DNA of 64,000 bases from an uncultured Planctomycetaceae bacterium (GTDB lineage Bacteria > Planctomycetota > Planctomycetia > Isosphaerales > Isosphaeraceae): positions 2,432,001-2,496,000 of the forward strand of contig CAWIAD010000001.1 of assembly GCA_963833985.1 (NCBI GenBank). The letters are read 5' to 3'. Shown here one piece after another: positions 23,341 to 42,974 of this stretch; the stretch's first letter is position 1, and the number at the start of each line of letters is the position of its first letter. The notes under the pieces were generated by a model. It did no database searches. It worked only from the letters and a program-made list of their open reading frames with translations, and was not told the origin of the DNA. The translations under genes and the position numbers were made by a program.

Positions 23341-23372
23341 TGACTTCGCTCATTCTGAACCCCAAGCTGAGC

Positions 23373-23423
23373 TTGGTCACTGACCAACCTCCAAGCCGTC
23401 CAATCCACTTGGTCACTGACCAA
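23373..23423. promoter_or_regulatory. Two copies of the palindrome TTGGTCA-C-TGACCAA upstream of pglXI (putative operators)
   Basis: Identical 15-mers at 23373-23387 and 23409-23423. Confidence 0.5.
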
Positions 23424-23566
23424 GTTGGTCGATCGTCCTCGAACATGAACATCACCGCGAGTATGGGCGTCGCATCTGACGATGGCCCTGACGGCGGCAT
23501 CGACGCCGCCGAGATCGAGCGGATCGCTCGCAAGAAGATTCTCCTGGAAGGATAAAGGCAAGAATC

Positions 23567-26272: not shown

Positions 26273-26279
26273 GTTAACC

Positions 26280-26528
26280 ATGACCACCCTGGCGAGTTTT
26301 GCAATCGGTAGCTCGGCCCTTCGTGCGGCCCACGCGGTGTGGGTGCGTACGCTCGATGCCGAGTCGGTCTGGAAACACACCGACTATCAGGTCCGGATTC
26401 CGCGATTGGTCATGGTCGAACAAGTTCGCGCCGTATCGCTTTCGCCGGCTCAACCGACGAATGCGACCTACCTCGGATATACCTCGACCAAGTCCCTCGG
26501 ACGGGAGAACAAGGCTGAACCCGCATGA
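26280..26528 (+). pseudogene. Degenerate duplicate of the brxHII 5' end
   Basis: AAHAVWVRTLDAESVWKHTDYQVRIPRL...SLSPAQPTNAT aligns with BrxHII AAHGESVRILDVETVWSHTVYQVWIPRL...SLSPDQPTKAT. Confidence 0.75.
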
Positions 26529-27943
26529 CGAGTCCCGAAACAATGACCCTGGTCGAACTCCACAAGCTCGTTGCCGAGAGCAAGGGTGAATGGGAGCACC
26601 TGGAGTTCAAGAAGACCACTGGCGAGTTGCACGGGGGAATGGAGACGCTGTGCGCCTTCCTCAACGGCGTGGGCGGGAAAGTCCTGTTCGGGGTGACCAA
26701 TGCGGGCAAAATTCAGGGGCAGGACATGGCTGACGCCACATACCAGGAAGTGGCGAACGCCATTCGCAAGTTGGAACCTCCCGCATGGATCGAGCAAATC
26801 CGCGTCCCCGTCGCGGGCACCAAGGAAGTCCTGATCCTGGAGACGACTCAGCAGACGGACGGCCCATACACCTTTGACGGCCGACCTTACCAGCGTATCG
26901 GCAACACGACCTCCCGGATGCCGCAGGCGGAGTATCAGCGGCGTCTGCTGGCGCGAGTCTACCTCAAGCATCGTTGGGAGAATCACCCCGCTGAAAGGTA
27001 CTCGGTCGCGGATTTGGATCTTGCCGAGGTGGAGCGAACGCACCGAATCGCCATCGATGTGCGGCGCTTGGAGACACCTTTTACGTCACCGTTGGATACC
27101 CTGGACCGGTTGCAATTGCGCCGGGATGGGCTTTTGCTCCAGGCGGCGGTCGTGCTTTTCGGCAAAAAGCAAATGCCCGATTACCCCCAGTGTGCCCTGC
27201 GGATGGCCCGGTTTCGAGGCACAACCAAGGATGAATTTATCGACCAACGGCAAATCCACGGTCATGCGTTCAACATCTTGGAAGAAGCCGCTCTGTTCTT
27301 GCGGCGTCACGTCGCCGTGGCAGGCTGGTTCGAGGAAGGCAAGCTGGAGCGGCAGGAGAAACCAGGATTTCCCTTCCTTGCACTCCGCGAAGCAGTCGTC
27401 AATGCGATATGCCATCGCGATTATTCGATACCCGGCGGAGCGGTCCACGTCGCCGTGTACGACGACCGGCTAGAGATCATAAGCACGGGCCTGCTGCCAC
27501 CGGGCATTACCGTGGCCGACCTCAAGCAAGACCATGCCTCACGGCCGCGCAATCCGCTGATCGCCGAACCGTTTTATCTGCGTTCCCTGATCGAGAAGTG
27601 GGGCCGCGGAACGCAAAGAATTGTGACGCTGTGCCGGGACGGTGGCTACCCTGACCCCGAGTTCTTGGAAGCGGCAGGCGCGGTCACCGTGCGATTCCCG
27701 GCAGCCGGCTACCAAGCGGCGACAAAAGCTCGGTCTCACTTGACGGAACGCCAGCGGAGCATTGTGTCGATCCTGAGCGACGGGAGAGAGCGGTCTTTCC
27801 CCGATTTATTCGAGGCGATGGAGAGCCCACCGAGCGCACGGACAGTTCAGGCTGAAATGCGCGCGTTGCGCGATCTCGGATTGATCGGTTCTCGGGGACG
27901 CGGGAAATCCGCAAGGTGGTGGCTCAAGGAGGGCGAGTCATAA
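26525..27943 (+). CDS. Schlafen/AlbA_2 domain plus HATPase-like domain plus winged-HTH protein
   Basis: EWEHLEFK, CAFLNGVGGKVLFGV, LREAVVNAICHRDY, RNPLIA, EKWGRG, C-terminal wHTH. Confidence 0.88.
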   Translation: MTSPETMTLVELHKLVAESKGEWEHLEFKKTTGELHGGMETLCAFLNGVGGKVLFGVTNAGKIQGQDMADATYQEVANAIRKLEPPAWIEQIRVPVAGTKEVLILETTQQTDGPYTFDGRPYQRIGNTTSRMPQAEYQRRLLARVYLKHRWENHPAERYSVADLDLAEVERTHRIAIDVRRLETPFTSPLDTLDRLQLRRDGLLLQAAVVLFGKKQMPDYPQCALRMARFRGTTKDEFIDQRQIHGHAFNILEEAALFLRRHVAVAGWFEEGKLERQEKPGFPFLALREAVVNAICHRDYSIPGGAVHVAVYDDRLEIISTGLLPPGITVADLKQDHASRPRNPLIAEPFYLRSLIEKWGRGTQRIVTLCRDGGYPDPEFLEAAGAVTVRFPAAGYQAATKARSHLTERQRSIVSILSDGRERSFPDLFEAMESPPSARTVQAEMRALRDLGLIGSRGRGKSARWWLKEGES

Positions 27944-27950
27944 TGCCGTC

Positions 27951-28010
27951 GAGTGCAGTCGAGCGCAGCCCAGCGCAATCGGGCGCAGCCCAGTGCAATC
28001 GAGCGCGGTC
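27951..28010. repeat. Six imperfect 10-bp tandem units
   Basis: GAGTGCAGTC/GAGCGCAGCC/CAGCGCAATC/GGGCGCAGCC/CAGTGCAATC/GAGCGCGGTC. Confidence 0.7.
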
Positions 28011-28121
28011 CACGACTGTCGTCGGAAGTCGTGCGCCGTCGCGCGGAACTACCTGGAATGGTGCGACGCTGCCACGAGAAAGGCGTCGGGAACCATGAAA
28101 TCAGCGGGCATCCCCAATTCG

Positions 28122-30917
28122 ATGATCCTGTCCGTCGGCTCCTGGGCCTTCAGTGCCGCCCACGGGGAGTCCGTGCGCATTCTCGATGTCGAGACGGTTT
28201 GGAGCCACACCGTCTATCAGGTCTGGATTCCCCGTCTGGCCACGGTCGAACGAGTTCCCGCCGAATCACTGTCCCCGGATCAACCGACGAAGGCGACCAG
28301 CCTCGATCGGATCACCTACGCCGTGGCCGCCGCAAGGATCGCCGACGCTTTGACCCAGGACGTCTTGCTGGCCCCGCTCGAAGCCGGCGTGATCCCCCTG
28401 CCGCATCAGTTGCACGCGCTCACTCGTGCCGTCACCGGCGACCGGGTTCGTTACCTCCTGGCCGATGAGGTCGGCCTGGGCAAGACGATCGAAGCCGGGC
28501 TGATCTTCCGGGAACTCAAGCTGCGCGGGCTCGTGAAGCGGGTTCTGGTCGTCGCCCCCAAGGGCCTCGTGCCCCAATGGGTCCAGGAGATGCAGACCCA
28601 TTTCGGCGAGGAGTTCCGGCTCCTCATTCCCAGCGAGTTCTCCGCGTGGCGGAATCTCACGGGAGCCGAGAACGTCTGGCGGCAGTTCGATCAGGTCGTC
28701 TGCCCCGCCGATTCCATCAAGCCGATCGAACGACGACGAGGCTGGTCCCGCGAGAAGCTCGAAGCGTACAACCAGGAACGCCTCGGCGACTTGATCGACG
28801 CCGGTTGGGATCTGATCATCTGCGACGAAGCCCACCGGCTCGGCGGCAGCACGGAACAGGTCGCCCGCTATCGCCTGGGCAGGGCTCTCGCCGAGGCCGC
28901 CCCGTATTTGCTCTTGCTCTCGGCCACGCCGCACCAGGGGAAGACGGCGGGATTTCAGCGGCTCATGGCTCTTCTGGACCGAGATGAGTTCATCGCCGCC
29001 GGTTCCATTCGCCGCGAAAAAGTCGTCCCGTTCGTAATCCGTACCGAGAAGCGGCGGGCCATCAACGACCGTGGCGATCCGTTGTTCATGCCTCGGGTGA
29101 CCAAACTCATGCCCGTGCGTTGGGACGACGAGAAGCACAGGCTCCAGAAGCACCTGTACGAGTCGGTCACGGAGTACGTTCGCCTCGGCTACAACCAGGC
29201 GATGCGGCAGAACCGCCAGTACCTCGGCTTCCTAATGATCCTGATGCAGCGGCTCGTCACAAGCAGCACGCAAGCGATCGCCACGGCAATGGAGCGGCGG
29301 CTCGAAACGCTGCACGCGACCAACATCACGGCCATCGACGAGGAAGAGCCCGAAGCCAACCTGGACGAACAGGACGGCCAGGAGCAGTTGGAAGAACTGC
29401 TGGCGATCCGGCTGGCTGGCCTTCAAAACGAGAAGGAAGAGGTCAAACTCCTCCTCGACCTAGCTCGCCGTTGTCAGGCCCAGGGTCCCGACGCACGGGC
29501 TGAGACGCTCCTCGACATCCTTTACGAGAACCAGCGGGACGAGAACAACCCGGAGTTGAAGTACCTGATCTTCACCGAGTTCGTGCCGACGCAGAACATG
29601 CTCCGCGATTTCTTAGAGCAGCACGGCTTCTCGGTCGCTTGCCTCAACGGCTCGATGGACCTAGAGGACCGACGTCGCGTCCAACGTCAGTTCGCCGAGA
29701 AGGCTCGCATCCTCGTCTCAACCGATGCCGGTGGCGAAGGTCTGAACCTACAATTCGCTCACATCATCATTAACTACGACTTACCCTGGAACCCCATGCG
29801 GATCGAGCAGCGCATCGGGCGTGTCGATCGTATCGGCCAGAAACTCCCGGTGAAAGCGTTCAACCTGATCTTCGAGAACAGCGTCGAACTTCGTGTCCAG
29901 GAAGTCCTCGAAGACAAGCTGGCGACGATTCTCGATGAGTTCGGCGTGGACAAGACGCAGGACGTTCTCGATTCTGCCGAGAGCGGGGCCGTCTTCGAGC
30001 GGCTCTATGCCCAGGCCATCCTCAACCCCGGTGACATTGAAAAAAACATCGACCTGCTGATCGACGAAGTCCGCGAGCAGGCCAAGGAAGAGATCGCCGG
30101 TCGGTCATACTATGGCGAGACGGTGCTCGATCCGACTCTGGCCCAGAAGCTGAGTAGCCATCCGTTGCCGTTTTGGGTTGAGCGCATGGCGACGGCTTAC
30201 CTGCGCTCCGAAGGCGGCAAGGTGGAGCGAGACTTGTTCGGCTACACCCTGGAGTGGCCCGATGGCACTCGAATGGACCGTGTGTCGTTTCAAAGCCGAG
30301 ACGCCCAGGACAAGGGCCTGCAACATGTCAGCCTGGAAGACCCCCGAATCCGTCGGCTCGTCCAGCAGTTGCCCCGAGTGGTCGCCACCGAGCCGATCCC
30401 TTGCGTTCGTCTTGCCAGCCTGCCCTCCGAGGTCGTCGGCTACTGGTCGTTGTGGCGAATCGCGATCGACAACCGGTCCCTCCGGGACGTGAAGATCATC
30501 CCGATCTTTCACCACGACGACGGCCGCAATCTCGTGCCCACGGCCCGCCACATTTGGGACGTCTTGATGGAGGATCGTCCCGATGTTGAACAGGTTGGAA
30601 CCAAGGCAGGGAGCGAAGTGGAGGCAGTATTCCGAACGCTACGAGCGGAAGCCGAGCGACAGGGTGAAGACGCATTTCACGAACTCTATGCTCGCCACCA
30701 ACAGCGATTAAAGCGAGAGCACGAAAAAGGCCAGTACGCCTTCCAGGCTCGCCGGGAAGCCCTCGATCGTCTTGGGCTCCCGGAAGTGCGACGACATCGT
30801 CTCAAGCGCTTGGGCGAGGAGGAACTTGCCTGGGCTGCCGAGCTACGCAAACGCGAGCAAATTTTGCCAGAGCTTCAGCCGGTCGTTCTCTTGCGAGTGG
30901 AGGCAGGGAATGGCTAA
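28122..30917 (+). CDS. brxHII: BREX type 3 SNF2-like helicase BrxHII (start may be 28094)
   Basis: LADEVGLGKT, DEAH, SATP, STDAGGEGLNLQ, PWNPMRIEQRIGRVDR. Confidence 0.9.
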   Translation: MILSVGSWAFSAAHGESVRILDVETVWSHTVYQVWIPRLATVERVPAESLSPDQPTKATSLDRITYAVAAARIADALTQDVLLAPLEAGVIPLPHQLHALTRAVTGDRVRYLLADEVGLGKTIEAGLIFRELKLRGLVKRVLVVAPKGLVPQWVQEMQTHFGEEFRLLIPSEFSAWRNLTGAENVWRQFDQVVCPADSIKPIERRRGWSREKLEAYNQERLGDLIDAGWDLIICDEAHRLGGSTEQVARYRLGRALAEAAPYLLLLSATPHQGKTAGFQRLMALLDRDEFIAAGSIRREKVVPFVIRTEKRRAINDRGDPLFMPRVTKLMPVRWDDEKHRLQKHLYESVTEYVRLGYNQAMRQNRQYLGFLMILMQRLVTSSTQAIATAMERRLETLHATNITAIDEEEPEANLDEQDGQEQLEELLAIRLAGLQNEKEEVKLLLDLARRCQAQGPDARAETLLDILYENQRDENNPELKYLIFTEFVPTQNMLRDFLEQHGFSVACLNGSMDLEDRRRVQRQFAEKARILVSTDAGGEGLNLQFAHIIINYDLPWNPMRIEQRIGRVDRIGQKLPVKAFNLIFENSVELRVQEVLEDKLATILDEFGVDKTQDVLDSAESGAVFERLYAQAILNPGDIEKNIDLLIDEVREQAKEEIAGRSYYGETVLDPTLAQKLSSHPLPFWVERMATAYLRSEGGKVERDLFGYTLEWPDGTRMDRVSFQSRDAQDKGLQHVSLEDPRIRRLVQQLPRVVATEPIPCVRLASLPSEVVGYWSLWRIAIDNRSLRDVKIIPIFHHDDGRNLVPTARHIWDVLMEDRPDVEQVGTKAGSEVEAVFRTLRAEAERQGEDAFHELYARHQQRLKREHEKGQYAFQARREALDRLGLPEVRRHRLKRLGEEELAWAAELRKREQILPELQPVVLLRVEAGNG

Positions 30918-32868
30918 CTGGCGCGACTCGATCCTCAAGAACTTCAAGCCGAAGATTTCGCGACTGACGCTCGTCGCCGACCCCGACGGGTTGCTCACCG
31001 AGGAAGGAATGCTCTCGGCTATCCGGGAACGAGGCTTCGATCTGATCCCGTTTGATGACCCGATAGCGTTCCGCTTTGCGTACGAGTCGCAATATCGCAG
31101 CCAGTGGGACAAGGGCCAGAACACGGACCTAGTGGTAGTCTTGCGTTCCACTGAGCCGCAGTTGAACAAGCTCCCCTTCGATCTGTTGAAGGCGGGTCGG
31201 CATCTGACTTTTGCGTTGCACCAGTTGTTCCCGAAGCTGAACTATCCGGTGATCGCCGGGTTGGATCGTGTGTACCTTGATGCCGTAGAGGAGGCTTACC
31301 AGAAGCACGATGGCAACCAGCTGACCGAACGCGAAACCAAAGAGTTCGTGTTGATGCATTGCTTCAGCATCGTGCCCCAACTCATCAAGAAGCCAGTCGA
31401 GTTGATGAAAGTTCTATTATCCCTTCACTCTCGCAAGGTGCGTCTGCCCGATTTCCTGATTGAGTATCTGCTGGAAAACCTATCGAAAGACGCCACTTTC
31501 AAGAAGTGGCCTCTCGCGGACATTCTCCCCAGCCGGGAGAGTTTTCTGCGCTTTCTACAGGACGAGTGGAGAGGGTTCCTCGGCGTAAGGGCTGAGCCGT
31601 CACGAACCTGCCGAGTCCCATTCAGCCACGAAGATGTGCGAGCCTACATCGACACCTTCTTTCTCGACGGCTCGCTTACGCCTATCGAACTGGAGAGCGA
31701 GACCACATTGCCCGCCTGGGCGCAGACAGGGGTCGTCCGCGATCCCAAGGCCGACGCCATCCGTCGGTTCCGAGCTCTATGGCGAAAGTTCGAGGCGGAA
31801 ATCCCCACCTCAGGTGTATCGCATCGGGAATGGCAGCAAGCGGCAGAACGGTGGGCGGAACTGGTCGTGATGCGTTGGGAATGGGACGAGTCGCTTGAGG
31901 CGACTGACCGGACTGCCTGGATCGAATTACAGAAAACCGTTGAGGACTCCTTCGCTCTTTGGATGATGCAGCGTTACGGCTCTTTGCACAACCTGCCCTA
32001 CCACCAACAACCGGTTATGGTTCACCAGATTCCCCGCTTCATGGCGGTGGAGAAAAAAGCCAAGAAGTTTAGCAAGATCGCTCTGCTGGTACTCGACGGC
32101 CTTGCCTTTGATCAATGGCTTCTACTCAGGAAGAATCTCGAAGTCGGCGACAAAGCATGGCGGTTCCGCGAATCGACGGCGTTCGCCTGGGTTCCGACTC
32201 TCACGTCAGTCACCCGTCAGTCAATCTTTGCCGGAGAACCGCCGCTCTACTTCCCGGATTCTCTCGCGACGACCGCAAAGGAGAAGGCCCACTGGCTGAG
32301 GTTCTGGGAGGACCAAGGCGTTCCTCGTGCCAGCATCGATCTGGTTACGAGCCTCGATGGTCCGAACGATTCGAAGCTGGAGACGGCTCTCGGCAACCCA
32401 CGACTCTCGGTCCTGGGCATCGTATGGAACAAGGTCGATGACATCATGCACGGAATGCAGATGCAGACGGCCGGGATGCACAACCAGGTGCGTCTGTGGG
32501 CTAGTCAGGGCCATTTGCAACAACTGCTCGCCCGTCTTCACGAGGAGGGCTTCGTCGTCTATCTGACCGCCGACCACGGAAACGTCACAGCCACCGGCGT
32601 TGGCAATCCGAAGGAAGGCGTTCTGGTGGAAACCAAAGGCAAGAGGGTCCGTGTTTACGATCGTGTCCAGTTCCTTGAGGAAGTTGCAGTCAAGTTTCCC
32701 GATTCGGTGCGATGGACGAATCAGGGGCTACCCCCGGCTCGGTACGTTCTCCTGGCGGGCGACCTGAAGGCATTCACGGACGAAGGCGAGGAAGTTGTGT
32801 CCCACGGCGGGATCGCCCTGGAAGAAGTCATGGTGCCGTTCGTGGCGATCACCAGGGAGAGGACATGA
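30910..32868 (+). CDS. pglZ: BREX type 3 phosphatase/nuclease PglZ
   Basis: LVADPDGLL, LLVLDGL, PTLTSVTRQSIFAG, TADHG, SHGGIALEEVMVP; overlaps brxHII stop. Confidence 0.92.
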   Translation: MANWRDSILKNFKPKISRLTLVADPDGLLTEEGMLSAIRERGFDLIPFDDPIAFRFAYESQYRSQWDKGQNTDLVVVLRSTEPQLNKLPFDLLKAGRHLTFALHQLFPKLNYPVIAGLDRVYLDAVEEAYQKHDGNQLTERETKEFVLMHCFSIVPQLIKKPVELMKVLLSLHSRKVRLPDFLIEYLLENLSKDATFKKWPLADILPSRESFLRFLQDEWRGFLGVRAEPSRTCRVPFSHEDVRAYIDTFFLDGSLTPIELESETTLPAWAQTGVVRDPKADAIRRFRALWRKFEAEIPTSGVSHREWQQAAERWAELVVMRWEWDESLEATDRTAWIELQKTVEDSFALWMMQRYGSLHNLPYHQQPVMVHQIPRFMAVEKKAKKFSKIALLVLDGLAFDQWLLLRKNLEVGDKAWRFRESTAFAWVPTLTSVTRQSIFAGEPPLYFPDSLATTAKEKAHWLRFWEDQGVPRASIDLVTSLDGPNDSKLETALGNPRLSVLGIVWNKVDDIMHGMQMQTAGMHNQVRLWASQGHLQQLLARLHEEGFVVYLTADHGNVTATGVGNPKEGVLVETKGKRVRVYDRVQFLEEVAVKFPDSVRWTNQGLPPARYVLLAGDLKAFTDEGEEVVSHGGIALEEVMVPFVAITRERT

Positions 32869-34343
32869 GGAAGGTCCTCGGAATCGACAGGAAGATCAAA
32901 AGGGCGTGGGTCGATGCGGTGCTGGACCGGCTGACGCAAACGACGGACGAGACGGAACTGCGCGCCTTCTTGGATGAGCTCCTGAAGGACGAAGTCTCCG
33001 GTAAGGAGTCGAGGGCCAAGACGACCGGGATCATCCTGCGAATCTGGAGCGGAATCCCATCAGCAAGAATCCCGCTGCGTGACCGGGCCGTGGCGATGCT
33101 GCCTCGCATCTCGGGGCAGGAACGAATCTGGCTGCATTGGGGTATGATGGTACTGGCGTACCCGTTCTTTCGAGACATTGCCGAAGTCGTCGGTCGCCTC
33201 TTGTCGCTCCAGGACGATTTCACCACGGCTCAGGTACAGGGCCGAATACTCACGACCTGGGGAGACCGGGCCACGAGCAAGGTAGCGGTGCCGAAGCTCA
33301 TAACGACCCTCGTGGATTGGGAGGTCCTTCGCTCGACGAAGACGAAGGGTCACTTTCTCCTGGCCCGGAAGATGACCGCCAGTACCCCAGACCTGCAACT
33401 CTGGCTGCTCGAAGCGCTTCTGGGGGCCAGCGCGGCCGATGAAATTGAGGCCCAGCAGTTCTTGCGTCTGCCCGAGTCGTTTCCGTTCAACCTGAGCATT
33501 GGGCTTGCTGATCTTCGACGACATGAAGGCTTTAACATCCATCGTCAAGGACTCGACATGGATATGGTCTCGCTACGGCCGGTGAAGAAGACCATCCCAG
33601 TGAAGTCTCCGAAGAAGCCTGTTAAGAAGCCCAAGCAGGCAGCGCCCAGCGTGTTTGATGCGATTTCTGTCGAGACACCGAAGTACCCCGTCGCTCAACA
33701 GATCGTCCAAGAGGTTGTCGAGGTCGCTCCTGTCCCCACGGCGGAACTTCATCCGAACCTCGAACCGTTCATCGCCTCCAAGATGGTTCCGCCCATTGAA
33801 TTGGCAATGTCCGAGCCAGACCGGACCGAGTCGCGGGCAGATTTCGTTACGACAGAGAGGTTGACGATCGTCAGGGATCTGGACCTCTCGGTCAACGTAC
33901 CGTTCTCGGCTCCGATCGGCGAATGTGTGAGACTCTTCCATGAAAGTCTCGACTTCGCGTGTATCGCCTTGGCTCACGACACGATCGACGCTATTCTGCG
34001 GCTTGTTTGCAAAGTGAAACTCGGCGCAAGGCAGGCCAAGTGTGCCGACATACGCAACCAATTCGGAGGTCTGACAGCGATCGGCGTGCTGCCGATTCCC
34101 ATGAAGACCAGACTCGAAAAGCTCTGGTACGAGCGAGTCGATTACCTGGAACTGAACATGGCCGAGCCTTCCGATCAATCGGCGATCGAGGAAGTGGCAT
34201 CGAGCCACATCTCGGTTCTGGTCGAACTCGTTCGTCACTTCCTTGGGCAATCGTCGGTTCAAGGCAAAGTTCTACCCGATCACCCGGAGTACTGGAACCA
34301 AGTCAAGAAAAGGCTCACATTCAAAGCCGAAACGGCAGGGTGA
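32865..34343 (+). CDS. brxA: BrxA-like protein with a long C-terminal extension
   Basis: ATGA overlap with pglZ; GIDRKI...LHWGMMVLAYPFFRD...WGDR...LVDWEVL; then a Lys/Pro linker and an extra helical domain. Confidence 0.75.
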   Translation: MRKVLGIDRKIKRAWVDAVLDRLTQTTDETELRAFLDELLKDEVSGKESRAKTTGIILRIWSGIPSARIPLRDRAVAMLPRISGQERIWLHWGMMVLAYPFFRDIAEVVGRLLSLQDDFTTAQVQGRILTTWGDRATSKVAVPKLITTLVDWEVLRSTKTKGHFLLARKMTASTPDLQLWLLEALLGASAADEIEAQQFLRLPESFPFNLSIGLADLRRHEGFNIHRQGLDMDMVSLRPVKKTIPVKSPKKPVKKPKQAAPSVFDAISVETPKYPVAQQIVQEVVEVAPVPTAELHPNLEPFIASKMVPPIELAMSEPDRTESRADFVTTERLTIVRDLDLSVNVPFSAPIGECVRLFHESLDFACIALAHDTIDAILRLVCKVKLGARQAKCADIRNQFGGLTAIGVLPIPMKTRLEKLWYERVDYLELNMAEPSDQSAIEEVASSHISVLVELVRHFLGQSSVQGKVLPDHPEYWNQVKKRLTFKAETAG

Positions 34344-34642
34344 CCGAAGGAGCCGAGTGGGTCTGGGCGAGTTCCTTGATGTAGGCCGAGACGTGGAAGC
34401 TCTTGATGTCCTTGAGGGCGAGCCGTCGGGCCTCGGACCACTCGAAGAACCGCCGGGCGTTCCGGTAATAGGCCGCCCGCGTGTTCTTGTTGCGGATCGT
34501 GTCCGTGAAGAACGTGAAGAACCGCTCGGACGCCTTCGGCCCCTCGTCGGCGATGACGGCGGGGATGGTCGTCGTGGCGGCCCGTTCGATGGTCGCCGGG
34601 AGCGGAGCGTCGTCGGTCGTCAGGTTCCGGTTCTTGAGCATT
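34340..34642 (-). pseudogene. N-terminal fragment of a tyrosine recombinase
   Basis: ASERFFTFFTDTIRNKNTRAAYYRNARRFFEW...HVSAYIKEL (SAM-like domain); no catalytic domain; truncated at the brxA 3' end. Confidence 0.78.
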
Positions 34643-34683
34643 TCGGTCCTCGGCCTGGGTCCCCTGCCCGGTCCCCATTTTAG

Positions 34684-34705
34684 TCGCATAACGCCCTTTA
34701 TGCGA
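34684..34705. promoter_or_regulatory. dif-like tyrosine recombinase core site
   Basis: TCGCATAA-cgccct-TTATGCGA: perfect 8-bp inverted repeat with 6-bp spacer, upstream of the recombinase remnant. Confidence 0.7.
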
Positions 34706-34952
34706 GCCATATCGGACCAGGGAAGGGGGCGGCAAGAGTGGATTTTTTGCAGCGTCCCTCGGCCAGAGAATCCACCCCAGAAACGCGAAACCCACCGGCG
34801 GTCGAGCCGATTTACAGACATCGCATGCGGGCATGCATTTTGTCCGTGGATGTTGACAGACCAATGACCCATTGACACGGCCCTCGGGACCGTAGATTTT
34901 GAGGCATGTTTCCCTGGTTTGCGATACGCACCGTGTTTAGAGGAGTCCGCCG

Positions 34953-35339
34953 ATGTCGGATGCCGCGTCGAAAGGGAGGCCTAACTCGTCTGCCGAACTC
35001 ACGCTGAACGAGCTTCAAGCGGTCGACCCTGAAATCTTGAAGGAGCTGCAGGAGAAGTATGGACTTGAGATCCAGGTCCGGTCAAACAGCGAAGCCATCA
35101 ACCAACTCTTGCAGGGAGTTGGGCGCACGGCCGCCCTCAGCCCCCAGGAGTTCACCCGCGGCTTTGATCGGACCAACCCCGGGTACGACAAATTCTATGA
35201 CCGCGACGGACCTGGTGGTGGTGGTTCCCGAGAGCAAGTGACTAAGCCAATCGAGAACCTGCTTGCCGTCTCACTGCAGGAGGCGATTAAGTCGTTGTCG
35301 GCAGAACAACTGGCCACAATCAAGAAGCTACACGGCTAA
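34953..35339 (+). CDS. Putative RiPP precursor with internal aromatic-x-Arg/Lys core
   Basis: GAGGAG RBS; FTRGFDRTNPGYDKFYDR at aa 67-84; directly upstream of the rSAM gene. Confidence 0.78.
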   Translation: MSDAASKGRPNSSAELTLNELQAVDPEILKELQEKYGLEIQVRSNSEAINQLLQGVGRTAALSPQEFTRGFDRTNPGYDKFYDRDGPGGGGSREQVTKPIENLLAVSLQEAIKSLSAEQLATIKKLHG

Positions 35340-35562: not shown

Positions 35563-36777
35563 ATGGTTTCGCTTGCTCCACAGTTGCTCCACCTCAGTAC
35601 AGAGGCTGCAGCTTATGTACGGCCGGCCAACTACCTCCTGGTTAAGCTGGCGGCGAGGTGTAACCTCAAGTGTTCTTACTGCTACTGGTTCCGCGACCCG
35701 AGCGTCTATGGGCGACCCAAGGTCATGACTGAGGAGGTCGAGGCGGCGCTCTTGGAAAAGCTACAGCGACACCTCGTTAACTATGGCCTAGACCGATTCT
35801 ATTTGCTGTTTCACGGGGGTGAGCCGACTCTTTTCGGTCGAGATCGCTTCGAGCAGCTCACCGGCCGTTTGCGGGCACTGGAGGCACGTCTTGGGGTGCA
35901 GTTACGTCTGGCGATGACGACTAACGGCTTGCTGCTCGACGACGATTGGATAGACGTCCTGAAACGCCACCAAGTCTCGGTGACACTGAGCTTCGATGGT
36001 CCGCCGCAAGTTAACGACACGCGGCGGATCGACTTCGTCGGTCGGGGCTCGCTCCAACAGAGCGTGGCCGCCCTTCAGCGTCTTCGTGCTGCGGACCTCG
36101 AGCCGGGTGTACTAGCCGTCTGCGATCCGACCCAGGAACCCAGGCTCGTTACCGATTACTTCGTCCAGGAGTTGCACATCCAGGAGTTCGACATCTTGGT
36201 TCCCGATGCTACGCATGAAGACCATACCGTCTCGATCGCCGATTACTATAAGCGGCTCTTCGACATCTGGTTGGACGAACTGGCCCCGCGCGGGGTGCGC
36301 ATCCGCTATCTCGATAGCCTCATCGCAGGTCTGGCCGGCTACGAGAGTCACTCGGAGTCAATCGGCTACGGTCCCAACCTGCACTTTACGATGCTCACCG
36401 ACGGCAGCCTCGAGGCGCTCGACACGGTGCGAATTGCCGGACCGGGGATTACAAACAGTTGTCTAAACATCCTCACCGATGAGATCCAGGACTTGGTCCG
36501 TGACCCGTTCTGGCGGGAGCTGCTCGAGGCCTCAGTCCATCTGCACAGGCAATGCGAGCAGTGTGTGTACCGCTCTGCTTGCGGTGGAGGGCACATCGCG
36601 TCGCGCTGGTCGAGGGCGAATCGCTTTGACAACCCGAGCGTTTACTGCCGGGATCTCATCGAGATCCTCCGCCACATTTGGCAGAGGATGGCACCAGACC
36701 TTTACTTGGTCGGCATTCCTCCGGACGCGGCGTGCAACTCGGGGTCACCGCAGAATCCTGCCAAGAGCATACACTAA
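35563..36777 (+). CDS. Radical SAM/SPASM peptide maturase, cyclophane-forming (FxsB/YhhB-like)
   Basis: CNLKCSYC, FHGGEP, TTNG, SFDG; SPASM CEQCVYRSACGGGH...FDNPSVYC. Confidence 0.9.
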   Translation: MVSLAPQLLHLSTEAAAYVRPANYLLVKLAARCNLKCSYCYWFRDPSVYGRPKVMTEEVEAALLEKLQRHLVNYGLDRFYLLFHGGEPTLFGRDRFEQLTGRLRALEARLGVQLRLAMTTNGLLLDDDWIDVLKRHQVSVTLSFDGPPQVNDTRRIDFVGRGSLQQSVAALQRLRAADLEPGVLAVCDPTQEPRLVTDYFVQELHIQEFDILVPDATHEDHTVSIADYYKRLFDIWLDELAPRGVRIRYLDSLIAGLAGYESHSESIGYGPNLHFTMLTDGSLEALDTVRIAGPGITNSCLNILTDEIQDLVRDPFWRELLEASVHLHRQCEQCVYRSACGGGHIASRWSRANRFDNPSVYCRDLIEILRHIWQRMAPDLYLVGIPPDAACNSGSPQNPAKSIH

Positions 36778-36829: not shown

Positions 36830-37990
36830 ATGGCCAGTCCCTACGTTTTGGTTCCCCCACCTGTATCGTTCGAGCCCTTCCCTTACTTCCAAGCTGCGCC
36901 GGTGATTCAGAAATATAATTGTGACGAACTGTTTACGTGGCTGAGTGCGGAGGCTCCCTGGCGATACCACCAGGAGTGTTTCTACCAGCAGATGGAATGC
37001 GATCTTCTGACGACGGAGCTTACTGGTCTCGCATCGCGGCTGTTCGACCCCGAGGCTCTGGCCGAACTCGTAGCCATCATGGAGGCGAGCTTCGGCGAGG
37101 TGCTCGACCAGCGGTTGAGTGTCGTCGCACACAAGCTACTGCCGGGCTACCAGATAAACATCCACAACGACGCGCCCGATCCGGGCATGGAGACACACCG
37201 CCTCGTTTTACAGCTAAATCCCCACGGTGTCCGGCCAGTCGGCGGAGACCTGGTGCTTTTCCGTAGCCGGTCGGAGCAGGACGTCCACGCCACGTTCGCT
37301 CCGGACTACAACACTGCGGTCGCCTTTGCCCTTTCGGACCGCTCCTACCACGCCGTGACTCCCGTCGAGACAGGGGTTCGCTATACGGTCGTCTACTCAT
37401 TCTGGACGAAGGACAGCGCGGAGGAAGCACGCCGGCGGGATGCCTCACTCGATGGCGAGGCCATCAAGACACTGGTCAGCATCCTCCAAGCCATCGGCGC
37501 GAACCGCGTTGCCCACAGCGACCGGACGCTGCTTGACCACCTACTAGGTACCTGCGAGCTTCTCCGCGCGTGGGGGTGCCGCCAGGCCGTGTGTGTGGCT
37601 GGGCTGTTCCACAGCGTGTACGGCACCGAGAGCTTAACTACTACCCTCGTCCGGCCCGAAGAGCGCGGCTTGCTCTGCGGGCTGATTGGCCCGGAAGCCG
37701 AAGAGCTGGTGCATCTGTTCGGAACTACTGCGCGGTTGACCCTCTTCGAGCGGTCAGAGGAAGGATGCGTGTTGCAGCTCCGCTCCACACGGGCTGACGA
37801 CTGGCTCACGGTTACACCCCAGCAGGCGCAGGACCTCCTCGCGATCAGCGCGGCTAACTTCGTCGAACAGGCGGCACGCGCTGAGCCCCCATTCTATCCG
37901 AACGACCCGAGTGTTACTGGCTACCAACGATTAGCAGGGCTCCTGCCCGAGCGGGCACGTGGTACTTTGGCACGCTTGGGAGCCTTGTGA
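36830..37990 (+). CDS. 2OG-Fe(II) oxygenase (YhhC-like) fused to a DUF6817/HD-like domain
   Basis: AHKLLPGYQINIHND (HxD), GGDL, YHAV, RYTVVY; then HSDRTLLDHLLGT...GLFHSVYGT...IGPEAEELV. Confidence 0.85.
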   Translation: MASPYVLVPPPVSFEPFPYFQAAPVIQKYNCDELFTWLSAEAPWRYHQECFYQQMECDLLTTELTGLASRLFDPEALAELVAIMEASFGEVLDQRLSVVAHKLLPGYQINIHNDAPDPGMETHRLVLQLNPHGVRPVGGDLVLFRSRSEQDVHATFAPDYNTAVAFALSDRSYHAVTPVETGVRYTVVYSFWTKDSAEEARRRDASLDGEAIKTLVSILQAIGANRVAHSDRTLLDHLLGTCELLRAWGCRQAVCVAGLFHSVYGTESLTTTLVRPEERGLLCGLIGPEAEELVHLFGTTARLTLFERSEEGCVLQLRSTRADDWLTVTPQQAQDLLAISAANFVEQAARAEPPFYPNDPSVTGYQRLAGLLPERARGTLARLGAL

Positions 37991-37997
37991 GGGTTCC

Positions 37998-39154
37998 ATG
38001 CCCTGGCCTGCGATCGAACTCCATGCATATGAGCAATGCAGCCAGATGGTGCTTGACCAACTCGCTGCGGCCGGCGCAGGTGACACCGCACACGCTGGCG
38101 CCAGCCTGCTCGTGCACCTTCGCAATACCCAGAAGATCCTGGAACGCTGGCAATGCCCACCCGGGCTCTGCCTGGCCGGTCTGTGCCACAGCGTCTATGG
38201 TGCCGTGTTCCCCCTCCGTCAAGCCGCCCGCCGGCGTGTGGCTGACTGGATCGGGGCCGAGGCTGAGCGCGTTGTCTGGTTCATCGCTACCGTGCACGCT
38301 GATGAGGTCGCGCGTCGGCTACTGGTCGTACCGACCGGTGACGCTAACATGATTTTGGCTCGTGCTGCCCTCGTGCTAGTGGCCAGCGACTTCGAGCAAC
38401 TCGGTCGCGTGCTGTTGTCCCCACGTCAGATCGAGCAACAACGACACCTCGCCATCCAGTGTCTACACTGGCTGCCCGAAGACGCCCGTGCCGACCTAGT
38501 GCGGCTCTACGCGGTTAGCCCCGACTCTACCGACACCGACTGGTCTCGCAGTACCGCCGAGGTCTATGACGCTGAAGCACGTAGGTACAATGCCCTCCGC
38601 GAGCTCACCTCCGACGACGTTCAATTGCTCCAACTGGTCGAGAAGCTGCTGCCGCCCGGGCGCGGGTGCTCGATCTGGGTTGCGGCAGCGGCGAGCCGAT
38701 CATGCGCCGCCTAACCGGCCGTTTCACCGTTGTAGGTCTGGACATCTCCAGCGAGCAACTAGCCCTAGCGCAACGCGCCCGAATAACAGCGCGGCTTGTG
38801 CGAGCCGACATGCTGCACCTGCCCTTCCCCGACTCGGCGTTCGATGGCGTGTGCTCCTACTATGCCATCGTTCATGTACCGCGCGTGAGACACGCACTGA
38901 TTCTTCGCGAGCTGCGCCGCGTGTTACGGCCAGGTGGCTGGGCACTCATTTGCCTTGGGGCCAAAGACGTCCCGGCCTGGCAAGACGTAGCCTTGCTCGG
39001 CCGCCCGATCTTGTTCAGCCATTACGACGTTAATGAGAACCTCGAGATGCTCGCGGAGCAGGGTCTGGCTATCCGTTGGTCATATATCGTGGGCGCAGAC
39101 ACTGCAGCGGCATTTCTCTTCGCTCTGGTTCAGGCTGAGGAGGACCCTGCGTGA
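37998..39154 (+). pseudogene. DUF6817 domain plus class I SAM methyltransferase, split by a 1-nt frameshift near 38660
   Basis: HAGASLLVHL...GLCHSVYG...IGAEAE; adding one G at CCC GGG (38655-38660) gives LPPGARVLDLGCGSGEP and joins ORF 38666-39154 (GLDIS, ADML, RVLRPGG). Confidence 0.78.
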
Positions 39155-40164
39155 TACCCGATAGACTGGTCCTGGAACGGCGATGCTTCCCGACCCGGAT
39201 TGCAGCCGAGCGCGCTTTACGTGGGCTCTACCGTGATCGGTGGCCCGTGCTGGTCGGCGAGACCGCCCACGAGCGGCTTTATTGCATTGAAGACGCGTTA
39301 GTCGGCCGCCCAGCTCGCGATCCGAATCTCGCCTGCAACCTTCGAGAAATCCTAGGGATTAGCCCGGAAGAGGCGGCCCACTTCCGCAGTTTTCGGGCCA
39401 GACATGGCGGTTGCAGGCTCACTACATTGCAGCACACGTGGGCACTAGAGGCCCTGAGCAAATGGGCCACGAGGCGTCACCCCGGCGATCCACCGCCTCT
39501 GTTACTGCACGTGGACGCGCACGACGACCTTCAGCCGCCCAGTCTCGTTGCAACTACTGATCCATGGATCTACCAAGCACCTGTAGGTGGGGACGTACTC
39601 GACCTCCACGACCCAGCTACGGTATCTCCGTTCGTAGAGCGTGGACTCATCGGCATTGGGGGCTTCCTGGTTCCAATCCTGCACGCCTTGGTAGCCGCTC
39701 AGGTCGTGTGGTTGCACCCACTTGAGGTTCGGCCCGCAAATACTCAGGCCAGCCTGCGGTCCGCCACCGAGCCATTTCTATTTTTTGGAGGGTGCTTCCA
39801 ACGGCCGATCATTGAGGTCGAGCCATGTGACGTAGAATCGGCCCATCCTTTACGCCTGCTCGCGACGGATAACTTGTCGTCCCTAGTATCGTGGCTCACG
39901 CCAGGCCCCGTGCTCGTTGACATCGACTTCGATTACTTCTGCAACCTCTATGACGATAGCCAGGTTCGGCCCCAAGAGCCACCGTCCCACAATGAGGTAT
40001 TAGACCACATCGATCGGTTCGCCAGCGAGTTGGGTCGCATCCTGAGGAACCACCGCGTCGAGCTTGTCACACTAGCGTTGTCGCCAGAATTCTTCCCGTC
40101 TGCCTACTGGCCCAGGTGCCTTGAGAGGCTCGAGGAACTCGGCGATTGTTTACTCGAAGCGTAG
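39151..40164 (+). CDS. UPF0489 / arginase-fold metalloenzyme (candidate peptide arginase)
   Basis: QH, LHVDAHDDL (DxHxD), VDIDFDYF (DxD), LSPEF; GTGA overlap with the methyltransferase. Confidence 0.75.
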   Translation: MIPDRLVLERRCFPTRIAAERALRGLYRDRWPVLVGETAHERLYCIEDALVGRPARDPNLACNLREILGISPEEAAHFRSFRARHGGCRLTTLQHTWALEALSKWATRRHPGDPPPLLLHVDAHDDLQPPSLVATTDPWIYQAPVGGDVLDLHDPATVSPFVERGLIGIGGFLVPILHALVAAQVVWLHPLEVRPANTQASLRSATEPFLFFGGCFQRPIIEVEPCDVESAHPLRLLATDNLSSLVSWLTPGPVLVDIDFDYFCNLYDDSQVRPQEPPSHNEVLDHIDRFASELGRILRNHRVELVTLALSPEFFPSAYWPRCLERLEELGDCLLEA

Positions 40165-40572: not shown

Positions 40573-41970
40573 TCATGAGCTATCGAGAATGGGAATGCGT
40601 TGACGTTCTTCGTGCCCGGGTCGGGCGGCTCGCCAGATCGTTTGCAGGTAACCCACGCCACAGCCGGGGCAGCGGTCCTCGACCAGAACCGCGGCTGGCG
40701 GCGCAGCGGGGGACGAGGCGAGCGAGGCCGTGTCAGCCGATGCGACAATGAGCGAAACCAGGACCACCAGTATGGAAATGCCCATGCGTGACGGCGATGC
40801 CGACTCGAACTCGACCAGAGACGGCGCTGGTCCCGCCCCAGTTGGCGACTGGTCGCTGTCCGTCGAACCACGACTGTCGCCCGATGGCGGCGACTTGGTC
40901 TCTGGGGCCGCCAGCGCGCGGCACAACGCCAAGCGCTCACCGCGATCTCGGTGGGCCAAGATTCCATATTGCCGAATCCGCACCAACCCCTTGGGAATAA
41001 TGTGCATCGCGAACCGGCGCACGAATTCCACCGCGTCCAGCGTCATCTCCTTGCGTCGGCAACCGTCGGCATAGTCCTTCCAGGTGAAGGTGACCCGATC
41101 GTTCTGGAGCTTCACCAGGCGGCGATTGCTCAAGGCGACTCGGTGCGTGTACCCAGTTAAGTACTTAAGCACCTGTTCAGGTCCGCCGAAGGGTTCCTTG
41201 GCAAAGACGATCCATTCCTTCTGGTACAACGCTCGTATCAATGCCCCCCAGGCCGCCGGGCTCTTCAGGGGCAAGGTGCTCCCCGCGAACTGGAGTTGGC
41301 CGGCTTGGTAAGCCGCGCGCAAGGCCGCCAGGTACTTGCCGCGGAAAACCGGGCTGAGAACCTTGACCGACAAGAACCAGTTGGGCCGGCACGACACCCA
41401 GCGTGGTGCCTGGTCGCCAGGGTCAGTCGCGGCGTTTCCCGAGGTTTTGGCGGGGACCGCCAACCCGCCGCCGGGCACCACACAGTGAACGTGGGGATGA
41501 TGCTCGAGCTGCTGCCCCCACGTGTGCAAGACCATCAGCACCCCGATCCGTGCTCCCAGGTGCTTGGGGTCGGCCGCCACCTCCATGAGAGTCTCCTTGG
41601 CGGCGTCGAAGAGCAGCCGATACAAGAACTGGCGGTTGCCCAAGGCCAGCGCGCTGAGCTCGTGGGGCAAGGTGAAGACGACGTGGAAGTAGGGCACGGG
41701 CAGGAGGTCGGCCTGACATTTGGCCAGCCAGGCTGCCCGCTTGCTCCCACCGCACTGGGGACAGCTTCGGTTGCCGCAGGAATGATAGTGGTACCGTACC
41801 TCGCTGCAGTGATCGCACTGGGTGACGTGACCGCCCAGGGCGGCCGTGCGGCAGAGCGCCAGGTCGTGTAGCGTCTGCCGCACATGGGGGCACTGGGGCC
41901 AACGGTTCAGGAACTCGGCTCCATACCGCCGCACGAGTTGACCGAAGGTCAGGGGCTGGTCGATGGACCC
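40573..41970 (-). CDS. IS91-family Y2 transposase with zinc-binding domain (start uncertain)
   Basis: CRTAALGG...CDHC...SCGNRSCPQC, YFHVVFTLP, LHTWG...HPHVH, YLTGYTHR, RIRQYG. Confidence 0.92.
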   Translation of the reverse strand, partial: GSIDQPLTFGQLVRRYGAEFLNRWPQCPHVRQTLHDLALCRTAALGGHVTQCDHCSEVRYHYHSCGNRSCPQCGGSKRAAWLAKCQADLLPVPYFHVVFTLPHELSALALGNRQFLYRLLFDAAKETLMEVAADPKHLGARIGVLMVLHTWGQQLEHHPHVHCVVPGGGLAVPAKTSGNAATDPGDQAPRWVSCRPNWFLSVKVLSPVFRGKYLAALRAAYQAGQLQFAGSTLPLKSPAAWGALIRALYQKEWIVFAKEPFGGPEQVLKYLTGYTHRVALSNRRLVKLQNDRVTFTWKDYADGCRRKEMTLDAVEFVRRFAMHIIPKGLVRIRQYGILAHRDRGERLALCRALAAPETKSPPSGDSRGSTDSDQSPTGAGPAPSLVEFESASPSRMGISILVVLVSLIVASADTASLASSPAAPPAAVLVEDRCPGCGVGYLQTIWRAARPGHEERQRIPILDSS

Positions 41971-42803
41971 TGCGGCGGGGGCAGACGGTCGAGCGGGCTG
42001 ACCACCTGTCGCAGTCCCGCCAAGGTGACGTGCGTGTATAGAGCCGTGGTCCCGATCCGATGATGGCCCAGCAAAGCTTGAATCGTGCGGGTGTCGACTC
42101 CCGCTTCCAGGAGATGGGTGGCATGGCAGTGGCGCAGAGTGTGCGGTGTGATCCGCGGCAGGCCCGCGTCGCGGCAGGCCCGCTTGCAGGCTTTCTGCGC
42201 CGTCGCGGCGTTCAGGGGTCGATGGCGATCCTTGCCCGGAAACATCCATTCTGTCGGCCTCGTTGCACGCCAGTAGGCACGCAGTTCTTCCAGGAGTCGA
42301 GGGGAGAGTGGCACCAGCCGTTCCTTCTGTCCCTTGCCCACCACCCGCACCACCATTCGGCTGCTGTCGATCTGTGCGGCGGTCAGGTGCAAGGCTTCGC
42401 TGATCCGTAACCCGGTGGCGTAGATGGTCCGCAGTACCATCCGGACGGTCCGGTCGCGCACGGTGTCGAGGAAGAGGGCCACCTGTTGGGGTGAGCGGAC
42501 CGCCGGCAACAGTTTGGGCCGCTTGCCGTAGGGGAGCCGTGTGACCACCGTGTCACTGGGATAGGTTACCCGATAAAAGAAGCGGAGGGCGGCCACGGCC
42601 TGATTGTAGGACGACCACGAGACCTTTCTGTGGTGGAGAAGATGCAGCAGATAGCGATGGACCTGCTCGTTGTCGAGTTGATCGGGGGATTGGTTGAAGT
42701 GGCGTGCCAGCTCGCGGAGGTGGAAGACGTAAGCCTCGATGGTCTTGGGCGAGCGGTTGCGTAGCTGAAGGTCTTCGATCAAGTGTTGCCGGAGCGGAGT
42801 CAT
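41949..42803 (-). CDS. Tyrosine recombinase associated with the IS91-like transposase
   Basis: MTPLRQHLIEDLQLRN, TGLRISE, GKGQKER, HTLRH, LLGH, TALYTH. Confidence 0.93.
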   Translation of the reverse strand: MTPLRQHLIEDLQLRNRSPKTIEAYVFHLRELARHFNQSPDQLDNEQVHRYLLHLLHHRKVSWSSYNQAVAALRFFYRVTYPSDTVVTRLPYGKRPKLLPAVRSPQQVALFLDTVRDRTVRMVLRTIYATGLRISEALHLTAAQIDSSRMVVRVVGKGQKERLVPLSPRLLEELRAYWRATRPTEWMFPGKDRHRPLNAATAQKACKRACRDAGLPRITPHTLRHCHATHLLEAGVDTRTIQALLGHHRIGTTALYTHVTLAGLRQVVSPLDRLPPPQGPSTSP

Positions 42804-42974
42804 GGTGAGGATTCCCGTGGAAAGCAAGAAAATCGCGTGGTCAGACCGCCGCGACAAACATGCCACAGGAAGGGCTCTGGCGCAAATCGTCATAACCGGA
42901 ATGATCGGCACAACCGGTATCAGGTGGGGAGAGGAGGAAAAAGCGCCCCGCGAGCGAGGAAAGGGCAAGGGTCG

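Follow-up and report, generated by a model that had tools for sequence, protein, structure and literature searches.

A predicted triceptide-type precursor with an internal double core, encoded with putative tailoring enzymes on a planctomycete mobile element

Introduction

Triceptide cores are usually located at the C-terminal end of their precursors. In the closest described systems, the excerpted accounts report that the radical SAM (rSAM) enzyme YhhB joins Tyr to the C-beta of Arg (PMC11002830) and that ChlB, whose native motif is YDR, cyclizes FDR as well (PMC11499958). Further tailoring is known from YhhC, which yields beta-hydroxy-Asp, and from SmaX, which turns beta-hydroxy-Asp into aminomalonate (PMC12186529). 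Peptide arginases, according to the accessible portions of two reports, convert Arg to ornithine (PMC12703449, PMC12257519), and the precursor types associated with PF12640 arginases in the portion of PMC12703449 at hand do not include triceptides. Kim et al. 2025 (PMC12186529, supplementary 'RiPPs' sheet) listed 16 YhhC-SmaX fusion enzymes as putative triceptide clusters; that study tested a graspetide cluster only, and its triceptide clusters are a bioinformatic list.

Here we describe a cassette in a 64,000-nucleotide stretch of DNA from an uncultured Planctomycetaceae bacterium (hereafter the window). Judged from its sequence and that of its relatives, the first gene of the cassette genuinely encodes a conserved precursor. 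The triceptide subfamily to which it belongs is uncharacterised; its layout is unusual, and many tailoring functions are predicted to accompany it (Table 1).

Table 1. Features of the cassette and its surroundings, in window positions
Feature	Position	Strand	Basis or remark
BREX type 3-like system: BrxC, PglX, BrxHI, PglZ, BrxA	19630-34343		adjoins cassette
Truncated integrase N-terminal SAM-like fragment	34321-34700	-	oriented away from precursor
Ribosome-binding site GAGGAG	34940..34945	+	from sequence; 7 nt upstream of precursor ATG
Precursor peptide gene, 128 aa	34953..35339	+	translation and homologues; heads five-gene cassette
Leader, aa 1-66 (66 aa)	34953..35150	+	conserved section is aa 16-56
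Core, aa 67-84: FTR, FDR, spacer TNPG, YDK, YDR	35151..35204	+	predicted three-residue cyclophane motifs
Gly-rich linker, aa 86-92	35208..35228	+	particular to window copy
Short follower motif V-T-K-P (family consensus V-I-N-P), aa 96-99	35238..35249	+	
C-terminal helix pair, aa 107-128	35271..35336	+	like leader helix pair aa 16-37
Radical SAM/SPASM cyclophane synthase, ChlB/YhhB-like (predicted)	35563..36777	+	curated models and solved relative
YhhC-type Fe(II)/2OG Asp hydroxylase fused to SmaX-type DUF6817 (HD-like) domain (predicted)	36830..37990	+	
Degenerate second DUF6817 and class I methyltransferase	37959..39154	+	Pfam; split by apparent frame change near 38660
Divergent peptide arginase-like protein (UPF0489/PF12640-like)	39151..40164	+	sequence and fold match
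IS91-family transposase and upstream tyrosine recombinase	40573-42968	-	right boundary of cassette
RepA, ParA/ParG-like pair, TrwC relaxase, coupling protein, integrase	43168-63371		integrated mobilisable element

Results

The precursor carries an internal double core

A sequence-only reading of the window had placed five of the six Phe/Tyr residues of this protein within aa 67-82, and the residue positions agree: the 128-aa precursor contains Y36, F67, F71, Y78, F81, and Y82. The nucleotide range quoted for that segment, 35151-35204, actually encodes aa 67-84. The proposed FxRxFxR and YxKxYxR motifs around TNPG match the translation exactly. The proposed layout was right in its leader of about 65 aa and its tail of about 35 aa (36 aa after the linker) and wrong in having the Gly-rich linker follow the core directly, as a single Asp (D85) intervenes.

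The full double core pattern appeared in none of 100,000 shuffles of the precursor protein, and at least four aromatic-x-R/K motifs anywhere in 333 of the 100,000. Across 140,299 six-frame ORFs of the precursor's own genome, the triple [FY]D[RK] pattern is found a single time, in the precursor itself. When His and Trp were also allowed, a looser double pattern had 10 occurrences, and the 8 displayed are Arg/Gly/His-rich repeats; this motif control also exposed frames with repeated H/Y-G-R-R-like units (G000:C1, ~1059100-1063500 and 2241600-2243200) that are probably repeat shadow frames. The cassette is present in a single copy in its own genome, and a phylum-wide search of 401 genomes matched the family there and in none of the other 400. 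In a promoter and terminator scan, promoter matches did not rise above shuffles (1 versus 1.6). No RiPP precursor model among the curated NCBIfam/Pfam models was passed by the window precursor. CCRG-2 and KH, from the same collections, were rejected as its identity, with matches below cut-off.

Conservation is concentrated in the core

A single-sequence search returned 7 homologues and a profile search 62 proteins with E <= 0.001 (50%-representative library); once fragments and N-terminally extended calls were omitted, the alignment comprised 57 sequences. Scanning genome contigs with a single sequence retrieved no relative, an 8-sequence alignment used as query did retrieve relatives, and the 57-row alignment was too variable to serve as query for such a scan. 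Mean majority identity over the 57 homologues was 0.71 for the core (aa 67-85), 0.43 for the leader (aa 16-56), 0.27 for aa 86-99, and 0.13 for aa 100-128. The core is thus, by alignment, the best-conserved region of the precursor.

Motifs 1 to 4 are kept in 40, 56, 57, and 56 of the 57 homologues, with motif 1 missing from 17. A scripted count, with a few miscalls (P0015, P0029, P0051, P0063), found four motifs in 38 of 57 homologues and three in 16. Phe or Tyr is the rule as the aromatic residue (His in 5 of the 209 motifs called), and Arg/Lys at the third position in 209/209 is so by definition of the motif search. Asp holds the middle position in 177 of the 209. The sequence-only reading did not consider that this Asp and the Arg residues are probable targets of the YhhC/SmaX-type and arginase-type enzymes encoded next door. 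Gly77 of the core is kept in 53 of 57 homologues, and a GGG after the core, as in the Gly-rich linker, in 1 of 57.

The leader is predicted to be helical and the follower is optional

The conserved section of the leader follows a layout of helix-kink-helix, Gly, an extended stretch ending in RS, and a further helix. A structure model built with 57 sequences (pTM 0.33; core pLDDT 53-60) consists of separate helices in the leader (18-23, 26-36, 47-55) and follower (108-114, 117-127), with the core predicted to be disordered. Foldseek found no PDB match to this model, and an ESM Atlas search with the precursor gave no usable match. The low pTM, the separate helices, and the lack of a fold match give, for the single chain, a precursor-like rather than a globular picture, which does not support a folded small protein; a full-length product that is never released may still be compatible with this picture.

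Measured from the R84 alignment column, the follower is at least 15 aa long in 44 of 57 homologues and does not exceed 5 aa in 11. Some of the short followers are possibly contig-end truncations; the follower-less precursors nonetheless look real, since three of them end identically in Y-D-R-G. A V-I-N-P-like motif is found in 31 of the 44 followers of at least 15 aa, and its Pro in 42 of the 45 rows with a residue at that column. Because it is absent from 11 homologues, the follower is not a family-wide requirement and is best described as an accessory element.

A profile of the leader (aa 19-37) scored 10.8 bits on the end of the window follower, a value that 21 of 81,064 background segments, drawn from long ORFs of the same genome, also attain; with the clade left out, the score was 9.6 bits, reached by 45 of 81,064. 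The follower of a close homologue, P0002, scored 21.4 bits, reached by none of the 81,064. Likeness at p < 0.001 was seen in 4 of the 43 followers long enough to test, all of them close kin, and none was seen at the DNA level (26/66 nt). A designed helical repeat protein (9zem, E 0.0037) is matched by the leader profile as well, so the shared helix motif partly reflects generic helix capping. We lean towards a true duplication of the leader helix pair at the follower end of this clade, a likeness that would fit a second docking site. Leader-plus-follower recognition, as the sequence-only reading had proposed, is partly supported: across the family the follower is common yet variable and in places missing, and in the window clade its end is leader-like.

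The precursor is linked to a radical SAM gene across five phyla

The best curated models for the rSAM protein are YhhB, FxsB, and XyeB, all below cut-off (269.2 bits against the YhhB model NF041707, cut-off 445). Its nearest solved relative is ChlB (9gm3, E 5e-51), and its CxxxCxxC motif and C331/C334/C340/C362 are invariant in 10/10 sequences.

When loci were collected by precursor, an rSAM gene lay directly downstream in 6 of 8. Of the remaining two, the contig of L008 stops within the precursor, and in L007 (L007:177-1307) the precursor frame continues into an unrelated protein on a 1.6-kb contig without an rSAM gene, probably an assembly chimera or gene capture. When loci were collected by rSAM gene, 14 of 80 carried a precursor of the window family. 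Precursor and rSAM gene occur together in 17 distinct loci, of which 14 encode a 2OG domain, 12 a DUF6817 domain, and 7 an arginase-like gene; the gene-content profiles behind these counts were built partly from the same loci, and Pfam independently confirms the domains in several. L014 and L041 have Asp-rich precursors and no 2OG/DUF6817 gene. The loci are spread over Chloroflexota, Actinomycetota, Pseudomonadota, Myxococcota, and Thermomicrobiota, so that the precursor-rSAM linkage spans five phyla; a quick rSAM tree (L034 and three duplicate loci omitted) served for phylum labels and nearest neighbours and not for clades.

The sequence-only reading was to be dropped if the aromatic-x-Arg motifs proved unconserved in homologues or the gene proved unlinked to the rSAM in other genomes. 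With the core conserved and the linkage kept across five phyla, neither is the case, and its central proposal of a triceptide-type precursor with an internal core stands.

In the other 66 rSAM loci, 2OG and DUF6817 domains occur together only in L009 and L010, whose F/Y-D-R precursors (L009:5553-5825, L010:5349-5627) have a different leader. The last 29-33 residues of the 2OG-DUF6817 enzymes of these two loci (L009:7166-8491, L010:7156-8469) match the leader of their own precursor, with 52-55% identity and pairwise E values of 1e-6 and 8e-8; at the sequence level, this tail resembles a natural leader-enzyme fusion. With the leader profile of the window family, neither the enzymes encoded in the window cluster (best 0.6 bits) nor the L009/L010 tails gave a match. 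Elsewhere in this set, a large alphaproteobacterial sister group (L019, L023, L024, L037, L040, L047, L058, L071) has Tyr/Arg-rich C-terminal repeat precursors upstream of the rSAM gene and no 2OG/DUF6817 gene. Highly repetitive precursors with at least six Y-D-R, seven H-D-K, or four F-D-R/F-N-K units precede the rSAM gene in L030, L079, and L086.

Prediction of the precursor-rSAM complex, which the sequence-only reading had put forward as a check, gave a score of 0.53 against 0.01 for the best control, with no interface given. Among solved pairs, 116 of 157 attain the mark used, as do 2 of 215 mismatched pairs; scores up to 0.60 account for 18 of the 157 and for both of the mismatched pairs. 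Between runs, at least 29% of contacts are shared, with a partner pLDDT of at least 44. The score may mirror likeness to the solved ChlB entries, and we take it as weak support for the pairing.

Four genes are predicted to tailor the precursor

The 2OG domain of the next gene passes the YhhC model NF041706 (164.9 bits, cut-off 150) and has H112/D114/H174/R184. The DUF6817 domain fused to it (Pfam E 1e-24) has H229, H237, H261, T266, R302, N343, and Q347, which correspond to SmaX H31, H39, H63, T68, R104, N143, and Q147; this mapping uses the spacing in PMC12186529 rather than a SmaX alignment, with identical spacing for five residues and a shift of two for the last two. The second DUF6817 domain keeps three His, has Ala in place of Thr, and has no recognisable equivalents of the Arg and Asn. 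It is probably non-catalytic, as several SmaX residues are missing, and is degenerate in L001, L003, and L005 too. In L001, the DUF6817-methyltransferase is an intact 383-aa fusion, whereas the window copy is recovered as two tblastn pieces in different frames. The rSAM (L001:8589-9762) and arginase (L001:12018-13113) genes of L001 are, in turn, each broken by a frame change.

For the arginase-like protein, the sole sequence match among solved structures is OspR (8brp, E 3.9e-6), which is also the top Foldseek match to its model (pTM 0.89; E 3.7e-8, TM ~0.5). H95, D122, H124, D126, D259, and D261 are invariant in 9/9 sequences and occupy the six metal-ligand positions in three motifs; of the EEH motif, as motifs are given in the available part of PMC12703449, His alone is retained. 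The protein falls below the Pfam cut-off (19.1 against 27 bits) and the FlmR/OhkR NCBIfam cut-off (14.3 against 350).

Two further loci (L017:7116-8795, L025:7125-8906) encode a 2OG oxygenase fused to an arginase-like domain, without DUF6817 and followed by a Methyltransf_24 gene, and these fusions tie the arginase and methyltransferase enzymes to the pathway. In L012, L070, L074, and L077, which have three-motif precursors, one or two unnamed genes of 300-390 aa without a Pfam match replace the arginase downstream of the 2OG-DUF6817 gene; L077 also has a PhyH oxygenase there.

The cassette is cargo of a mobile element

From about 16 kb of the window onward, the GC content is about 0.58, against 0.65 for the genome. 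The presence of RepA, ParA, relaxase, coupling protein, and integrase genes in this region indicates that the cassette is mobile-element cargo. In the adjoining BREX system, a Schlafen/AlbA_2 ATPase gene is inserted at 26525-27943, and BrxA is extended at its C-terminus by about 250 aa that match no family. A PADLOC search in the flanks of 13 other loci revealed no family-wide association with defence islands: the 55 flanking ORFs gave 4 matches (AbiEi-like, kinase, group II intron RT, and PDC-S02), none common to loci. The lack of an exporter and the proximity to BREX hint at an intracellular, possibly anti-phage role; the other loci give it no support.

Discussion

Proposed pathway

The precursor gene lies beside four putative tailoring genes and is conserved together with them, and we think it likely that it encodes a triceptide-type ribosomal peptide precursor with an internal core on which their products act. 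By analogy with the described enzymes, the rSAM protein would bind the conserved leader and link each aromatic ring to the C-beta of the Arg/Lys two residues on. Three or four rings would be expected, with FDR, YDK, and YDR the firmest candidates and FTR the most variable. The YhhC-type domain would then beta-hydroxylate one or more middle Asp residues, the fused SmaX-type domain would cleave hydroxy-Asp to aminomalonate, and the arginase would turn one or more core Arg into ornithine. The methyltransferase, if intact, would methylate an ornithine amine or a carboxylate, its target being a guess. The follower would be accessory: absent in some precursors, a carrier of the V-I-N-P motif in most, and a second leader-type docking helix in the window clade. 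The weakest step, also a guess, is that leader and follower would be trimmed by proteases encoded elsewhere; release of the product is assumed here, since no conserved protease or transporter/exporter was found among 94 selected neighbouring ORFs of 17 loci, some of which are shadow frames. We count against the pathway the gene absences in L007, L014, and L041, the split methyltransferase, the arginase-like score below the Pfam cut-off, and the failure of the rSAM protein and the precursor to pass the YhhB and YhhA models.

We also considered a portable docking module in the helix pair L-x-x-L-[DST]-P-E-x-L. This pair opens the leader and would recur as a duplicate at the follower end of the window clade, and in L009 and L010 a leader copy is fused to the 2OG-DUF6817 tail. 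A double-handled precursor would then hold two enzymes at once, and a product with rings, aminomalonate, and (methyl)ornithine would act intracellularly, possibly never excised. We regard this extension as doubtful.

Alternative explanations

Given the lack of a conserved protease or exporter in the neighbourhoods, the product might never be released at all, and a full-length modified 128-aa protein could act in the cell, the matching helices at its two ends presenting a rigidified acidic/aromatic loop, possibly in phage defence. The long follower in 44 of 57 homologues and the position of the window cassette beside BREX, on an element that carries a relaxase, a coupling protein, and an integrase, would suit such a role. 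So would two parallels: all 17 YhhC-SmaX triceptide rows of Kim 2025 are marked as without an HlyD/C39 exporter, and anti-phage lanthipeptide clusters are mostly without ABC transporters, according to an excerpt of a preprint (bioRxiv 10.1101/2024.06.26.600839). However, the model has a pTM of 0.33 and no fold match, the follower is unconserved as well as missing from 11 homologues, and the few PADLOC matches in the flanks of the other loci do not recur. Missing proteases are also common, in that RiPP proteases are often located outside the cluster (portions of PMC10885120 and PMC12636437). We consider an unreleased product unlikely. Its release with another ring pattern or fate, in which two or three motifs are cyclised or a sacrificial part of the core is oxidatively removed with the follower, is quite unlikely in our view. 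Motif 1 is indeed missing from 17 homologues, and 16 have three motifs, but the motifs flanking the spacer are equally kept (56, 57, and 56 of 57). For oxidative removal there is a precedent in minviopeptin, where MicC cuts off a C-terminal ring-bearing heptapeptide at Gly (excerpt of PMC12912966); Gly77 is conserved, and the cluster has a predicted oxidative C-C cleaving domain and no protease. Against this, the 2OG domain passes the YhhC model, while the same excerpt describes MicC as unrelated to known RiPP 2OG enzymes.

It is extremely improbable that the gene encodes some unrelated small protein, or represents a chance frame, beside the rSAM gene and that its product is not the rSAM substrate. 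The precursor passes no curated RiPP model, and L007 carries the sequence without an rSAM gene, yet the motif pattern never arose by shuffling, conservation is focused on the motifs, and the gene keeps its place before the rSAM in loci from five phyla. The preferred reading remains a tailored triceptide precursor with an internal core.

If so, the cassette predicts a triceptide in which aminomalonate and ornithine accompany three or four strained rings; the literature examined does not describe these features together. It would provide a test of the SmaX cascade on a ring-internal Asp and of a peptide arginase on a cross-linked Arg. The internal core and optional follower would allow leader and follower recognition by a cyclophane synthase to be told apart, which is relevant to rings placed inside proteins. 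Cultured carriers of the family include Microbispora, Blastococcus mobilis, Microbacterium, Sorangium, and Asticcacaulis.

Comparison with known systems

The window system resembles YhhA/YhhB/YhhC (NF041705, NF041707, NF041706) in its top rSAM model, in a 2OG domain that passes the YhhC cut-off, in its aromatic-x-Arg motifs, and in the Asp hydroxylation to be expected. It differs in that its rSAM protein fails the cut-off and that the YhhA model picks up a single precursor out of 57 (E 0.076), with no match for the window precursor (P0001). The window family also uses Phe/Tyr rather than His motifs, has a long leader and follower, and adds DUF6817, an arginase, and a methyltransferase. By the curated sequence models, the window system is not a YhhA/B member.

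ChlA/ChlB (PDB 9gm3, 9gmc) provides the closest solved rSAM, and its YDR motif and acceptance of FDR, known from the available portion of PMC11499958, recall the window core. An excerpt of PMC12636437 has the rings formed first and Asp hydroxylated after, the same order as proposed for the window system. ChlB, however, is fused to an HEXXH hydroxylase, whereas the window hydroxylase is a YhhC-type 2OG domain; a search of the PDB with the precursor profile found no ChlA-like chain.

With OspR, FlmR, OhkR, and PbsE (PF12640), the arginase-like protein has in common the fold and the six metal-ligand positions, and the known enzymes act on precursor Arg. It is very divergent from OspR, with 19% identity and an additional N-terminal region. 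Minviopeptin (MicA-D), as described in the accessible part of PMC12912966, is likewise a multi-motif triceptide with a removable C-terminal 'follower'; there it consists of 7 core residues that MicC cuts off, whereas the window follower is 44 residues long and helical. No MicC or ADP-ribosyltransferase is evident in the window cluster.

A literature search returned no paper on the window precursor family, which Sugiyama 2022, Ruel 2025, or Figure 5C of Kim 2025 may cover. The portion of the Kim 2025 text at hand does not describe an internal core, follower, arginase, or methyltransferase, and Figure 5C may show such a precursor. The SmaO/SmaX cascade of that study (PMC12186529) is matched here by a 2OG domain joined to a DUF6817 domain with the seven key residues. 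Moreover, 3 of the 16 fusion enzymes in its list, together with their rSAMs, fall in 90% clusters of the Microbispora locus L002. The precursor family is therefore not wholly new: its Microbispora enzymes were already listed as uncharacterised triceptide clusters by Kim et al. 2025 (PMC12186529).
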